A DNA stretch of 64,000 nucleotides from Octopus vulgaris (taxonomy: Eukaryota): the NCBI GenBank assembly GCA_951406725.2, contig OX597814.1, positions 96,286,001 through 96,350,000 on the forward strand, written 5' to 3'. The notes beneath the pieces were generated by a model, which was given only the letters and a program-made list of their open reading frames with translations, made no database searches and had not been told where the DNA came from. How positions within the stretch are numbered: position 1 is the first letter of the stretch; each line of letters begins with the position of its first letter. A program made the translations under genes and the position numbers. This document shows, one piece after another, positions 1,326 through 58,733 of this stretch.

Positions 1326-1374
<49 letters not shown>

Positions 1375-1581
1375 CAATGATAAATATCAAAGTGAGTTAT
1401 ATACAGTAGCGGTAACACATCGTGACGTATTTTTGCCATTTCAATATGGCTAACCCCTAAGGGTAGATGCTACTGTAGTTTTTAGCCCCAGGAGGACACA
1501 CTCCTCCAGCTGGCCATAGACACACTATCTGTGTCCTGTCAGTATTTGCAAAGGGAAGTCATCCTTCCCGTCTTCAACTTA

Positions 1582-1638
1582 TGATACACACGGACTCGAG
1601 TTTCGAGGTATTGACCTCTCGTCAGCGTGTGACAATCA
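1582..1638 (-). ncRNA. type I hammerhead ribozyme, copy 1
   Basis: Reverse complement of the 1876-1932 motif. Confidence 0.9.
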
Positions 1639-1875
1639 TAGTTGTCGCCGAGAATTAGATTTCCTTCACAAATACTTATACTTTTTCCAGCGTCCACTGT
1701 CGCTGATATTGAAAAAGTGAAATCAAACAATGATAAATATCAAAGTGAGTTATATACAGTAGCGGTAACACATCGTGACGTATTTTTGCCATTTCACTTT
1801 TTCAATATCAGCGACAGTGGACGCTGGAAAAAGTATAAGTATTTGTGAAGGAAATCTAATTCTCGGCGACAACTA

Positions 1876-1932
1876 TGATTGTCACACGCTGACGAGAGGT
1901 CAATACCTCGAAACTCGAGTCCGTGTGTATCA
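1876..1932 (+). ncRNA. type I hammerhead ribozyme, copy 2
   Basis: cacacg-CTGACGA-gaggt-caat-acctc-GAAA-ctcgag-TC|cgtgtg; stems I, II and III all pair; predicted GUC cleavage after 1921. Confidence 0.92.
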
Positions 1933-2228
1933 TAAGTTGAAGACGGGAAGGATGACTTCCCTTTGCAAATACTGACAGGACACAGATAGTGTGTCTATGG
2001 CCAGCTGGAGGAGTGTGTCCTCCTGGGGCTAAAAACTACAGTAGCATCCACCCTTAGGGGTTAGCCATATTGAAATGGCAAAAATACGTCACGATGTGTT
2101 ACCGCTACTGTATATAACTCACTTTGATATTTATCATTGTTTGATTTCACTTTTTCAATATCAGCGACAGTGGACGCTGGAAAAAGTATAAGTATTTGTG
2201 AAGGAAATCTAATTCTCGGCGACAACTA

Positions 2229-2285
2229 TGATTGTCACACGCTGACGAGAGGTCAATACCTCGAAACTCGAGTCCGTGTGTATCA
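2229..2285 (+). ncRNA. type I hammerhead ribozyme, copy 3
   Basis: Identical motif; predicted cleavage after 2274, 353 nt downstream of copy 2. Confidence 0.92.
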
Positions 2286-2444
2286 TAAGTTGAAGACGGG
2301 AAGGATGACTTCCCTTTGCAAATACTGACAGGACACAGATAGTGTGTCTATGGCCAGCTGGAGGAGTGTGTCCTCCTGGGGCTAAAAACTACAGTAGCAT
2401 CCACCCTTAGGGGTTAGCCATATTGAAATGGCAAAAATACGTCA

Positions 2445-2475
<31 letters not shown>

Positions 2476-3483: not shown

Positions 3484-3722
3484 GAAGGTTTGGAGATGAT
3501 GTACAGGTATTATATATTAGAAGAAATGAGGTAATCAGAAGATCGGATGGTTCATATTTATAGATATTTATTTATATATTACATTTTTTACATATATATA
3601 TCATATCATTCAGATCATATCATTCAGATTATTAGCGCTTTCTTCCATTCCAGTGGGGTTTTCAAATCAAATTAATTCCTTTGTGGGGAATTTGATCATT
3701 TTATAGAGTTTCTCTCTGTGTA

Positions 3723-3760
3723 TCTTTCTGTTGAAGAGCGTAGGCTCGAAACGTTAAAGA
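3723..3760 (+). ncRNA. minimal hammerhead-like motif in 5' pLTR, CUGUUGA core
   Basis: tcttt-CTGTTGA-a-gagc-gtag-gctc-GAAA-cgtt-aaaga. Confidence 0.65.
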
Positions 3761-4481
3761 CTTGTTTTATTTATATTTCCTGAGCGCCATACTAATACAA
3801 TTGCTCGTTTGTTTTCCACCTGCCTTCGTCTTTTGTCTATTTTCATAAAGCTTCCCGTTATATATTATGCGCTCACGTGGTCTCACTTTCATCCTATATT
3901 CTACCAATACCACTATCAACACTTACCTCTACCTTGGATTTTCTTTACCTCTTGGATACTTACCATTGGCTGCACCTCTCTTTCGCGGATCAAAGTGACT
4001 TTGCATTGATGTGAAATCCTTAAAAAATATACCACGACGTCTACACATTTCTCACCTTGAACTTTCAACCTTGAACTTGTTCGCATAAACTGTCCCGTTT
4101 GTTGTATTTTTATTTTCTCTTATATTACCACTTTTTTTACATTCATTTCATGCTTTCCACATTTTCCTGCATTTTTGTTCTCCTTTCCGTCTTTCTTCCC
4201 TCTCTGGATGTCCATACTCCGTTTCCTCTGCCTGCACCCCCTTTTTTGCCTCCCCCTCTCTCTGCTTCCCTTCTTTCTTTCCCTTTTCCGTTTGCCCCAA
4301 CTTTTCTGCCCCTATCGCTTACTTATCTTAGTTTTTTCATACGATTATTATTTTTTTGTTTTTTTGAACGTTTGTTTTTCCCCTTTTTTCGCTATCCTTT
4401 TTTTTCTATGTTTTTCATACGATAATTTTTGTTTTTTGTTTTTTTTTGTTTTTTCGAAGGTTTTTTTTCCGCTATCCCATC

Positions 4482-7400
4482 ATGCCGGATCCTAGGTCCT
4501 ACCTCCTCACCCTCCATCACCGTTTGAAGGATCATCTCCGTTCGCTTCCTGTATATTGCCTTCAGCCGTCCGTTAATCTCTCTCTACTTCTTTTTAAAAA
4601 AACCCGCTTCTCTAGCCATGTCTCTTTCCTAAGCCGCTGCCTACATCACCGACTCATCCCTAAAGGTTTCCGCCTCCACTTCCACCCTGCTCTCCACTCG
4701 GATTCTTCCATCTTACCCATACTCCGCACCACATCTTACCGCCTTATGCGGGCCACCATTCGCTCCAATCTCTCCAAACTACATGCCATCAACCGCCTTC
4801 TTCCTCCTGCTTTCTCCACCTTCTTCTCCTCTCTGCCGCCTCTCTATGCTCCAAACACGCTACGCTTCATTATCCATTTGAATCAACTCTTCCATCAATT
4901 TCTTTCTGATACCAAACTTCGTAAACTCCAATCACTCTTCCATTCCACCCTACCCGACGCCACTACCCCAACTCCTCCACCACCCTTCTCCCCTCCCGAT
5001 AGGCTCCATCCACCCACACCTAACCCCACTGCCCCTCCCTACAACCCCTTCTCCTCTCCCGATAGGCTCCATCCACCTACACCTAACCCTACTGCCCCGC
5101 CCAACCACCCCCACACACCTCCCCAATCCCTCCCCCTCAGACCTCCACGAGACCTACCACCCCTCCTACTTCTATTCCACCCACCCCTTCTCCACTTCCG
5201 TCTGTTGTTACCATTCCCCCCGATCTTCCCCTCTCTGCGGCTGAACGCTCCGTCCTTGGTAGGGGTCTGCAATTCATCCCCCTCACTCCATCCTGTAAGG
5301 AATTCCAGACGCGAGTTGATGTCCACAGCTTTGTGCGCCGTGTACGGTTGGGTGCGCGTTACCACGACTCGCCACCCACACCCAACGAAGAGGACTGCTT
5401 CACTGGCCTGGGCCGCCGACCATCCCCGTGGACGCCTGCCCCTGGCCAGATCCTAGCAGTGGATCTTTTCGCGGGCGCTTGTCAGCGTGCATTGGAGCGG
5501 TTCAACTTCTCCAGGCGCCAACGCCGCCTCAACATCTCCCCGGCTGAGCTCTTGGCTCTTCGTTCCCTCCAACGGCGCGCTGACATTATCATCAAACCGG
5601 CTGACAAGGGTGGAGCTGTAGTGGTGTGGCGCGCGGACCTCTATAGGGCCGAGGCTTTCCGCCAACTCAATGACACCTCCTTCTATTCCCCTCTGCCCTC
5701 TAACCCCACATGTAGCTACCAACAGACGGTATCCTCTACTGTCCACGACCTCATCTCGTCCTCCCGTCTCCCCCGCACCGCATCCAACCTAATTGTGCGA
5801 ACCCCACGTACCCCCATCATTTACTTCCTCCCCAAAATCCACAAAACCAACAACCCTGGCCGCCCCATCGTCTCCGCCTGTAACTGCCCCGCGGAGCTCA
5901 TCTCTAAATACCTCGACCGTGTCCTTGCCCCCTAGTGGCATCTCTTCCCTCCCACATCCACGATACCAACCATGCTCTCCGGCTTTTCAACTCTTTCTCC
6001 TTTCCTCCCGGCTCCTCCAAAATCCGTTTTACTATGGACATCCAAAGCCTCTATACTGTTATCCCTCACCACGAAGGACTGCAGGCCCTTCGACACTTTC
6101 TTGACCTCCGCTCTAACCCTGTACCTGACACCTCCACACTCATTCGTCTGGCCGAACTTGTCCTTACTCTGAACTGCTTCTCGTTCGCGGGCGAGTTCTA
6201 CCATCAGATCTCGGGAGTGGCCATGGGAACGCGAATGGGCCCCAACTATGCGAACCTGTTCGTTGGCTATGTTGAGGCCCAAATATTCTCTAATTTCACT
6301 GGTCCCACTCCTGAACTATATGGTCGTTACATTGACGACATTATCGGTGCCACCTCACTCTCCCGCGAACATCTAGATTCCTTCCTCTCTTTCGTCCAAT
6401 CTTTCCATCCAGCCCTCCACTTCACTTCCACTATCTCCAACACCTCTGTCTCCTTCCTCGACATTTCGGTTAGCATTCTTCACTCCACTCTTACCACCTC
6501 CATTCACTACAAACACACAGACTCACACTCATACCTCAACTTCTCTTCCTCCCACCCAGAACACACCAAGCTTTCCATCCCCTATTCCCAATTCCTCCCT
6601 TTTCCCCTCACTTACCACCCCACGACCCTACGTCTCCAACGCACCATTCTTCGAGCTTTCCGTCATCTCCAGTCCGACCCGTCCACTTCACACCTCTTCC
6701 CTAACCGACCCCTCCCCTCTTTCAAACGAGCCCACAACCTTCGAGACCTTTTGGTCCATAGCTCCTTCCCTGACCCTACCTCCCAACCCGGCTCGTTCCC
6801 CTGCTCCCGCCCACGTTGCCGCACTTGCCCTTACCTCTCCAACACCACCCGCCTCACTAGCACCCACCATCGACCCTATCCCATCATCCACTCCTTCACC
6901 TGCACCTCCAGCAATATTATCTATTGCATCTCTTGCTCTCTCTGCAATTCCTTGTACATCGGACAAACGGGACGCCGCTTGGCTGACCGGTTCGCGGAAC
7001 ACCTTCGTGACATCCACCTTGCGAACGACACACCGGTCTCACGCCATTTCCGCTCCACCGGTCACTCCTTGCAACACCTATCTGTGTTCGGTTTGTCCTT
7101 ACACAGAGGCCATCCGGATTCCCGTTTGCGCCGTGAACAGGAATTAATCTTCTCTCTTCGCTCTTATACGCCATTTGGTCTCAACTCTCCCCCTCCTCAT
7201 CTAACCCCTCTCTCCCCCTCCTCACCTATCCTTTCCCCCCGACCCCTACTTCTTCAGTCCTTCATCCTTTCACTCCTACTCCCCTTCTCTTCTTCCCTCT
7301 TTCTCCCTCCCTCCTTCCCTCTTCCCCTTCCCTCTGCTCCCTCACTCCCTCACTCCCCTTCTCTCTCCCCCTCTCTCTCCCCCTCTCCCTCTTTCCTCCT

Positions 7401-7578
7401 TCCTCCCATTCCTTCTCCCCCTCCTCTCTCTCCCCCTCCTCTCCTCTTCCCCCTCTCATCCCCCTCTTCTTCCCCTCCCCTTCTCCCCCCTCTTCCCCCC
7501 CTCTTCTCCTCACTACACCACACGACTTTACACATCACATCATATATGATGTGCCATGCTAATACATACACCAACTAA
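4482..7578 (+). pseudogene. Penelope-like reverse transcriptase / GIY-YIG endonuclease polyprotein, frameshifted
   Basis: Motifs LSAAERSVLGRGLQFIP, IKPADKGGAVVV, PKIHK..PGRPIVS, MDIQSLYT, GVAMGTRMGPNYANLF, RYIDDI, Cys linker CSRPRCRTC, IIYCISC..LYIGQTGRRLADRFAEH and GLN; frameshifts near 5100-5200 and 5930. Confidence 0.93.
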
Positions 7579-7872
7579 TACATACTAATACATACTAATA
7601 CATACACCAACCCTATACATACACACGTCCAGACCCCTCATACGCACTTATACTCTCTCATACACACACACACACACTTATACATACTAATACGTACTAA
7701 TACATACTAATACATACTAATACATACACCAACCCCATACATACGCACGTCCAGACCAATCCTACGCACTAATACTCTCTCATACACACACACACACACA
7801 CGCACACCCTTATACATACTAATACATACACCAACCCTATACATACACACGTCCAGACCCCTCCTACGCACT
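7560..7872 (+). repeat. tandem repeats in PLE 3' UTR (CATACTAATA units and about 3 longer imperfect units)
   Basis: Recurrent CATACACCAACCC..CACGTCCAGACC blocks. Confidence 0.7.
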
Positions 7873-8055
7873 ATTAGCTGGTCCTTCAACCCTATTATCA
7901 ACCCTATTATCAACCCTATTATCTCCCCTTATTTCGCTCTCGCGTCTCATGTTTGATCTTTGACCTCTGGCCGAAATCAGATCGCCATGTTGATTCGTTA
8001 GCTACTGCACGCATATTTTTCTCTCCTTCTTTCTGTGTTTTTTTCTCTCTGTGTA

Positions 8056-8093
8056 TCTTTCTGTTGAAGAGCGTATGCTCGAAACGTTAAAGA
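8056..8093 (+). ncRNA. minimal hammerhead-like motif in 3' pLTR, CUGUUGA core
   Basis: tcttt-CTGTTGA-a-gagc-gtat-gctc-GAAA-cgtt-aaaga. Confidence 0.65.
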
Positions 8094-8190
8094 CTTGTTT
8101 TATTTATATTTCCTGAGCGCCATACTAATACAATTGTTCGTTTGTTTTCCACCTGCCTTCGTCTTTTGTCTATTTTCATAAAGCTTCCCG

Positions 8191-57908: not shown

Positions 57909-58310
57909 AAGGCGGCGGGCTGGCAGAAACTTTAGCAAGCCGGGCGAAATGCGTAGCCGTATTTCGTCTGCCGTTACGTTCTGAGTTCAAATTCCGCAGA
58001 GGTCGACTTTGCCTTTCATCCTTTCGGGGTTGATTAAATAAGTACCAGTTACGCACTGGGGTCGATATAATCGACTTAATCCATTTGTCTGTCCTTGTTT
58101 GTCCTCTCTGTGTTTAGCCCCTTGTGGGTAGTAAAGAAATAGGTATTTCGTCTGCCGCTACGTTCTGAGTTCAAGTTCTGCTGAGACTGACTTTGCCTTT
58201 CATCCTTTCAGGATCGATGAAATAAGTACCTATCAAGAACTGGTGTCGTAATAATTGACTAGTCTCCCTCCCCCCAAATTTCAGGCATGGACCTGTAGTT
58301 GAAAGGATTT
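57909..58310 (+). mobile_element. dimeric family-1 SINE (tail-A copy fused to a head-less tail-B copy)
   Basis: Junction AAAGAAATAG|GTATTTCGTCTGCC near 58142. Confidence 0.8.
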
Positions 58311-58733
58311 TATAAAGACTAAATACAAAACTAAAATATTTAAGAAAGGCATACCGATGAACGTCGAAAATACCGATCTCGAAATGATAAAAGGCAAAGT
58401 CGACCTCGGCAGAATTTCAACTCGGAGCATAAAGACGGCACAGCAAAACATTCTGTATAACCAGAGTATCAGATAATAGTACAAAATTGTGTCGTAATAA
58501 TTGACTAGTCTCCCTCCCCCCAAATTTCAGGCATGGACCTGTAGTTGAAAGGATTTTATAAAGACTAAATACAAAACTAAAATATTTAAGAAAATACCGA
58601 TGAACGTCGAAAATGCCGATCTCGAAATGATAAAAGGCGAAGTCGACCTCGGCAGAATTTCAACTCGGAGCATAAAGACGGCACAGCAAAACATTCTGTA
58701 TAACCAGAGTATCAGATAATAGTACAAAATTGT
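58243..58733. repeat. recent tandem duplication, 246-bp unit x2
   Basis: 58243-58488 versus 58489-58733 near-identical. Confidence 0.92.

Follow-up and report, generated by a model that had tools for sequence, protein, structure and literature searches.

A young hammerhead retrozyme family in Octopus vulgaris bears the genomic insertion footprint of Penelope-like elements

The analysed window is a stretch of 64,000 nucleotides of the Octopus vulgaris genome (assembly GCA_951406725.2, contig OX597814.1, forward-strand positions 96,286,001 to 96,350,000), and coordinates given without a contig refer to it. Near its left end lies an insertion (1373–2448) consisting of two head-to-head arms of a 353-nt unit, set between a left (TA)n target tract at 1317–1372 and a right one at 2447–2483. 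We number the unit from the first base past the predicted ribozyme cut. The direct arm (1791–2448, plus strand, 658 nt) runs from unit position 223 round to 174; the inverted arm (1373–1796, minus strand, 424 nt) runs from unit position 150 round to 220 and contains a single difference, at position 1465. The arms overlap by 6 nt (1791–1796), a microhomology junction between the 5′ ends of both. Two sites within the unit are central to the analysis. Site A (unit positions 171–174; internal copy at 2092–2095, plus strand) is located at or just beyond the loop of a predicted hairpin, and its copy at 2445–2448 is the true right end of the insertion. Site B (unit positions 214–222; internal copy at 2135–2143, plus strand) provides the outer end of the inverted arm, where unit position 220 is window position 1373. 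The sequence between the two sites forms a 46-nt 'tail' that is present at one end only (1373–1418, minus strand). The period of 353 nt is exact (1791–2095 is 100% identical to 2144–2448), and a single cut-to-cut monomer (1922–2274, plus strand, 353 nt, 42.5% GC) corresponds to the predicted circular RNA. A sequence-only reading of this window had placed two hammerhead cut sites 353 nt apart, and that spacing is the exact repeat period. The extent it gave, 1791–2447, is too short: the element is 1373–2448, and the reading overlooked the 424-nt inverted arm with its third hammerhead, the 6-nt overlap and the (TA)n at both outer ends.

Three type I hammerheads are found in the insertion. Two are on the plus strand, at 1883–1927 (core CTGACGA beginning at 1889, predicted cut after 1921, stem I extending over 1870–1939) and at 2236–2280 (core beginning at 2242, predicted cut after 2274); the third is identical and lies in the inverted arm (1587–1631, minus strand, with its core starting at 1625 and a predicted cut between 1593 and 1592). 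The parts are a 5-bp stem II, GAAA, the stem III palindrome ACTCGAGT and GUC sites, which end at 1921 and 2274 on the plus strand; every motif previously named for two complete plus-strand ribozymes is present. A scan by E-value of positions 1780–2460, a range outside which hammerhead 3 falls, matched the full Rfam model Hammerhead_1 (RF00163) to 1883–1927 and 2236–2280 (32.2 bits, E 4.4e-6), just below the model's gathering score of 34, and no ribozyme class besides the hammerhead was among the matches in that range. At the gathering score the Rfam scan of the window gave no matches.

The unit holds no credible open reading frame, as the first reading had maintained: the longest frame beginning with ATG is 38 aa, and the frame encoding reverse transcriptase (RT) and GIY-YIG domains of an autonomous Penelope-like element (PLE) is absent. 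The self-complementary motifs listed in that reading were all found in the unit, and folding of the circular monomer, which it had proposed as a check, gave a strongly self-paired structure (−116.9 kcal/mol, z −5.6; none of 100 shuffles was equally stable). In an alignment of 15 copies from both subfamilies (see below) and one old copy, with 97% of cells paired, two-sided changes occur at 7 pairs, against 0–4 in slid controls; relatedness of the copies inflates the shuffle test of this covariation. A lone hammerhead favours a misfold (−24.2 versus −18.3 kcal/mol for the canonical fold), the predicted pairing probability of stem III in the monomer is near 0, and the lowest-energy fold of the monomer differs from the hammerhead fold. 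Two hammerheads co-fold at −53.1 versus 2 × −24.2 kcal/mol into a canonical double hammerhead comprising stems I and II and an 8-bp shared stem III. On these folding energies the hammerheads would probably cleave as dimers via the stem III palindrome, and the earlier suggestion of dimer cleavage finds agreement in co-folding in silico. Each unit carries one hammerhead, in one polarity, the minus-strand hammerhead of the window belonging to the inverted copy. A viroid or viroid-like replicon would carry ribozymes in both polarities of the unit, and the term 'viroid-like' applied earlier was an overstatement.

The window unit is a member of a family. In the 2.8-Gb genome there are 439 exact copies of the 33-nt hammerhead core, 494 exact junctions of site A with (TA)n and 478 exact copies of site A read through, with reversed-pattern controls of 0 in each case. 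The genome-wide counts of cores and end junctions agree with the proposal of a young multicopy non-LTR retrozyme family; the unit is not single-copy. A young subfamily shows about 97–100% identity to the window unit and an older one, with a unit of about 352 nt, about 85–95%; stray copies are found near 70–79%. The core of the older subfamily reads CCGAUGA in 17 of 24 hammerheads (loci L131–L170), and this U4C change reduces hammerhead activity in vitro (PMC3088659). The older hammerheads mostly have no G–C pair at the base of stem II, and a two-sided A–U/G–C change is seen at the pair next to the base mismatch. The insertions analysed number 114, comprising 74 not chosen by their ends (best full-unit matches, first exact-core matches and four larger arrays) and 40 further end-selected insertions on contigs C1 and C2; the set excludes two segmental duplicates and three old copies of less than 90% identity.

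Comparison of these insertions reveals a strong preference for particular ends. The 74 insertions picked without regard to their ends have 112 outer ends, of which 104 fall at site A or site B, about 45 nt apart; (TA)3 stands directly beyond 92 of these 104, against a background of 6% across the loci and 1% over the window. The outer ends are set at two fixed internal sites and not at the ribozyme cut. Across the family the insertions are partial tandems with fixed 3′ ends and variable 5′ truncation; the older subfamily with the U4C core shows the same ends as the young one, and an old copy of 73% identity still ends at site A. The ends are embedded in (TA)n, where a target-site duplication would be unreadable. 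Priming by microhomology was rejected as the rule: the most (TA)-like part of the unit (about positions 189–195) is the end in just 1 of 112 cases.

The two sites are not used independently. Two arms are present in 63 of the 114 insertions, and in 58 of these 63 one arm ends at A and the other at B; none is AA, none is BB, and five have one odd end. The A+B arrangement accounts for 34 of 38 two-armed insertions in the set not chosen by ends, and under independent site use the chance of 34 discordant pairs is below 1e-10. One-armed insertions in the same set end at A in 27 cases, at B in five and elsewhere in four, and TA is also present on the 5′ side in 25 of these 36. The inner junction between arms shows an overlap of at least 1 nt in 46 of the 63 two-armed insertions. 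A correlation between arm lengths (rho 0.44) was discarded, having gone within the sample sets.

Such insertions have a precedent in PLEs, which leave partial tandems with an adjacent inverted, 5′-truncated copy, carry a tail of 30–40 bp, usually at one end, and show a bias toward microsatellites (Craig et al. 2021; Arkhipova et al. 2013). In work with the purified protein of an anole PLE, AT-rich DNA was cut and extended on both strands, and reverse transcription began at two positions inside the RNA, which mark the limits of the tail (Frangieh et al. 2024, PMC11167929). Shared between the octopus family and insertions of EN+ PLEs are the partial tandems, the 5′ truncation, the adjacent inverted copy, the one-end tail, the (TA)n bias and two internal RT starts. 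Unlike EN+ PLEs, the octopus unit has no open reading frame, its hammerhead is canonical and not minimal, and its small sequence is repeated for as many as six complete rounds; its tail, about 42–50 nt across insertions, is slightly longer than the 30–40 published for PLEs. The match of the A+B rule, the one-end tail and the inverted arms to the PLE signature leads us to attribute the insertions to PLE-type mobilisation. The main mechanistic signal, which the first reading had missed, is that two start sites of Penelope type inside the unit, and not the ribozyme, determine where genomic copies end. We conclude that the family is a non-LTR retrozyme with direct genomic evidence for PLE mobilisation, the enzyme presumably being provided by a helper.

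The nature of the template is reflected in the cleavage junction and in variation between rounds. End-selected loci numbered 65; 39 of their 65 A arms continue past the cleavage site, and 5′ ends do not pile up at the cut (5 observed versus 3.1 expected). A pile-up of 5′ ends after whole rounds is not significant, and there is no excess of stops at positions 1–12 past the cut. None of the 171 crossings has an indel within 7 nt of the cut, a precision that is partly biased, the loci having been picked by exact match to unit positions 321–353. Given clean crossings and no excess of ends, cleaved linear monomers are not the usual template. Arrays reach up to six rounds of the unit, and several haplotypes have five or six. 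Divergence is 0.66% within insertions versus 1.47% between them, common markers agree across rounds in 393 of 402 locus checks, and 10 locus-private variants are present in all rounds of their locus, including 6/6 and 5/5 across both arms. Rare substitutions at positions with at least three copies number 113: 98 are single, nine are in all rounds and six in some rounds. As read from the copies themselves, the all-round variants favour a putative rolling-circle copying of one monomer. To accommodate the six partial-round variants, copying purely from a single circle would have to be supplemented by conversion or template switching, and in one four-round array (L013, C31:10831003–10832367) two haplotype markers are mixed between rounds. 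The predicted template is probably a circle.

Three other explanations were weighed against copying from a circle. The same PLE-driven insertion could draw on an uncleaved linear multimer from an existing array, with a hammerhead that cuts weakly or plays no necessary part in mobility. Such a template likewise predicts that arms pass cleanly through the junction, and the U4C core of the older subfamily and the six partial-round variants speak for it, as does work on other elements: for the anole PLE unprocessed RNA is the main template and ribozyme mutants inserted normally (PMC11167929), and one of nine Xenopus dimers cleaved in vitro (10.64898/2026.07.22.740005). Three of seven shared arm pairs stand at offset +1, where an A-ended parent would place them, but the closest hairpin register at these loci is likewise +1 and gene conversion explains it equally well. 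Arrays copied from linear multimers could only shorten, yet several haplotypes have five to six rounds; private variants in all five to six rounds need a monomer bottleneck; and round-private variants recur between loci as 8 pairs among 140, which is about chance by our estimate. We regard a multimeric template as unlikely, while granting it some weight.

The two remaining explanations fare worse. An RT that copied self-cleaved linear monomers, jumping from the 5′ end to a 3′ end held near by stem I, would travel a pseudo-circle and account for homogeneity within insertions; stem I is predicted by folding to bring both monomer ends together, and non-LTR RTs can jump templates (PMC8857657). Jumping by R2, however, depends on non-templated additions (PMC8857657), and the missing excess of stops at positions 1–12, together with 171 crossings free of indels, makes such jumping very improbable. 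Amplification of a satellite at the DNA level, through unequal crossover or extrachromosomal DNA circles and with the hammerhead as a relic, has in its favour that satellites are, in the standard view, expected to expand locally in tandem (10.64898/2026.07.22.740005). It leaves the fixed A/B ends, the one-site-per-arm rule and the random 5′ truncation unexplained, and equally the (TA)n flanks and the covarying RNA helices; it is effectively refuted by the end statistics, and we attach scarcely any credence to it.

Returning to the circle, we consider it likely that this is a young non-coding retrozyme with fixed A/B ends, copied by a PLE RT/endonuclease from a predicted self-cleaved, circularised 353-nt RNA. 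Tandem copies would be transcribed, the hammerheads would cut, probably in dimers paired at the stem III palindrome, and the monomer would be ligated into a circle, by analogy with other retrozymes. A PLE protein would then grip unit positions of about 170–220 and nick both strands of a (TA)n tract, and one DNA end would be primed at site A and the other at site B, where ends are observed. Each RT would circle the template through the ribozyme junction, the read-through of which is seen in the arrays, for a random length of up to six rounds. Joining of the two cDNA 5′ ends by microhomology would give the observed head-to-head arms, and priming at a single end, mostly at A, the observed one-armed insertions. 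A bolder reading takes the genome as a fossil record of rolling-circle reverse transcription on a ribozyme-made circle by a Penelope-like dimer, with a single circle held at a 45-nt landing pad, from which each subunit, at a fixed site of its own, would prime one of the two ends of a cut (TA)n tract, the pad having evolved without sequence homology to the helper; this we advance tentatively, as a real possibility that falls a little short of being probable.

The circle-templated synthesis of tandem cDNA by a PLE had already been proposed for retrozymes (Cervera & de la Peña 2020, PMC7229834), but this route of return to DNA is not demonstrated in the literature surveyed. To that proposal the octopus family adds start sites at base level, a (TA)n target and a rule of one site per DNA end. 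The 353-nt substrate suits the existing in vitro PLE assay, by which circular versus linear template and the identity of the helper become testable. The family also bears on the origin of PLE tails and inversions, being a short non-coding unit with both arms readable in dozens of insertions.

The retrozyme class is already known and PLE dependence has previously been argued from homology; new are the octopus family and its insertion footprint. Like the non-LTR retrozymes of coral, mussel and axolotl (PMC7229834), which consist of a tandem non-coding unit of 150–450 nt, the octopus unit has a canonical type I hammerhead, a GC content under 50% and a self-paired circle (here predicted); its two-pair stem III with tetraloop resembles that of axolotl HHR_Amex2, whose cleavage is better in dimeric form (PMC7229834). 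RNA has been demonstrated for the coral, mussel and axolotl retrozymes, whereas the octopus family is known from genomic DNA. Fixed internal ends, the tail, inverted arms and (TA)n targeting are seen here and were not found in the main text of PMC7229834, in which 'inverted', 'microsatellite' and 'cephalopod' have no matches. Animal retrozymes are reported to depend on PLEs (Li, Clavereau & Pollet 2026, 10.64898/2026.07.22.740005) on the evidence of co-occurrence and pLTR homology, mostly in vertebrates; in octopus the evidence is the insertion footprint, and comparison with the two PLEs examined found no pLTR homology. The family also differs from MRC1-type non-autonomous Chlamys elements, which are from green algae and have a 3′ end resembling that of an autonomous family; most Chlamys elements are without hammerheads (Craig et al. 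2021). A literature search of incomplete coverage found no octopus or cephalopod retrozyme (supplementary lists could name one) and no tail or inversion analysis of any retrozyme; within that coverage, the earlier view of a family possibly undescribed in its lineage holds.

The window itself contains a candidate helper, a near full-length PLE (3709–8182, plus strand) with RT, CxxC linker and C-terminal GIY-YIG, whose frame is broken near 5930. Its RT and GIY-YIG domains are recognised by Pfam, both below curated cut-offs, and its 157-nt pLTR ends in (TA)n and has a minimal hammerhead-like core, CUGUUGA. The family is very young (all 150 scored matches listed for its 137-aa endonuclease region stand at 100%) and abundant (16,986 first-look candidates). 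A role as partner is not supported: it shares a motif 24 nt beyond site A, but the second-end pattern gave no matches, and nearly all of its listed ends are at one site. The octopus genome also carries many intact 781-aa frames of a second family (L201–L216), in which a simple pattern found no hammerhead. Copies of this family stop at either of two points separated by 40 nt, running into (TA)n, and 3/3 of its two-armed loci are A+B. As a possible partner it shares the end geometry of the retrozyme and has no sequence match. The unit showed no DNA similarity at E<1 to 50 PLE-bearing loci, mostly of two families, and clustering of (TA)n-adjacent ends found no partner; further PLE families are present in the genome. 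As the unit is without DNA similarity to the two PLE families examined, the helper is given as a class and not as a named element.

Near-identical words of the unit occur in sequencing runs under eight organism labels from 11 studies; the unit was found in 20 of 24 rows, none of them on record as RNA. Contigs from four runs all bridge 2274 to 1922, and one of 383 nt (353+30) from run X1 has zero differences; tandem DNA would look alike, and we rejected these contigs as a demonstration of circular RNA.

Several further arrangements were observed. Stubs of pLTRs from other PLE subfamilies, bearing minimal hammerhead motifs and each ending in TA repeats, lie on the minus strand at 2843–2997 and 1091–1316, the latter adjoining the left (TA)n tract of the retrozyme. 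The junction of pLTR to 5′ end of the window PLE recurs every 470–510 nt at C8:18600708–18602209, C2:121324535–121325027 and C5:64049998–64050529, possibly as tandem mini-PLE arrays. At L001:470–1460 part of an element related to the 781-aa PLE stands head-to-head with an odd-ended retrozyme arm, a join that may be a chimera or a chance insertion. Finally, positions 58243–58733 of the window hold a two-copy tandem of period 243 with 97% matches, in which no hammerhead pattern occurs.
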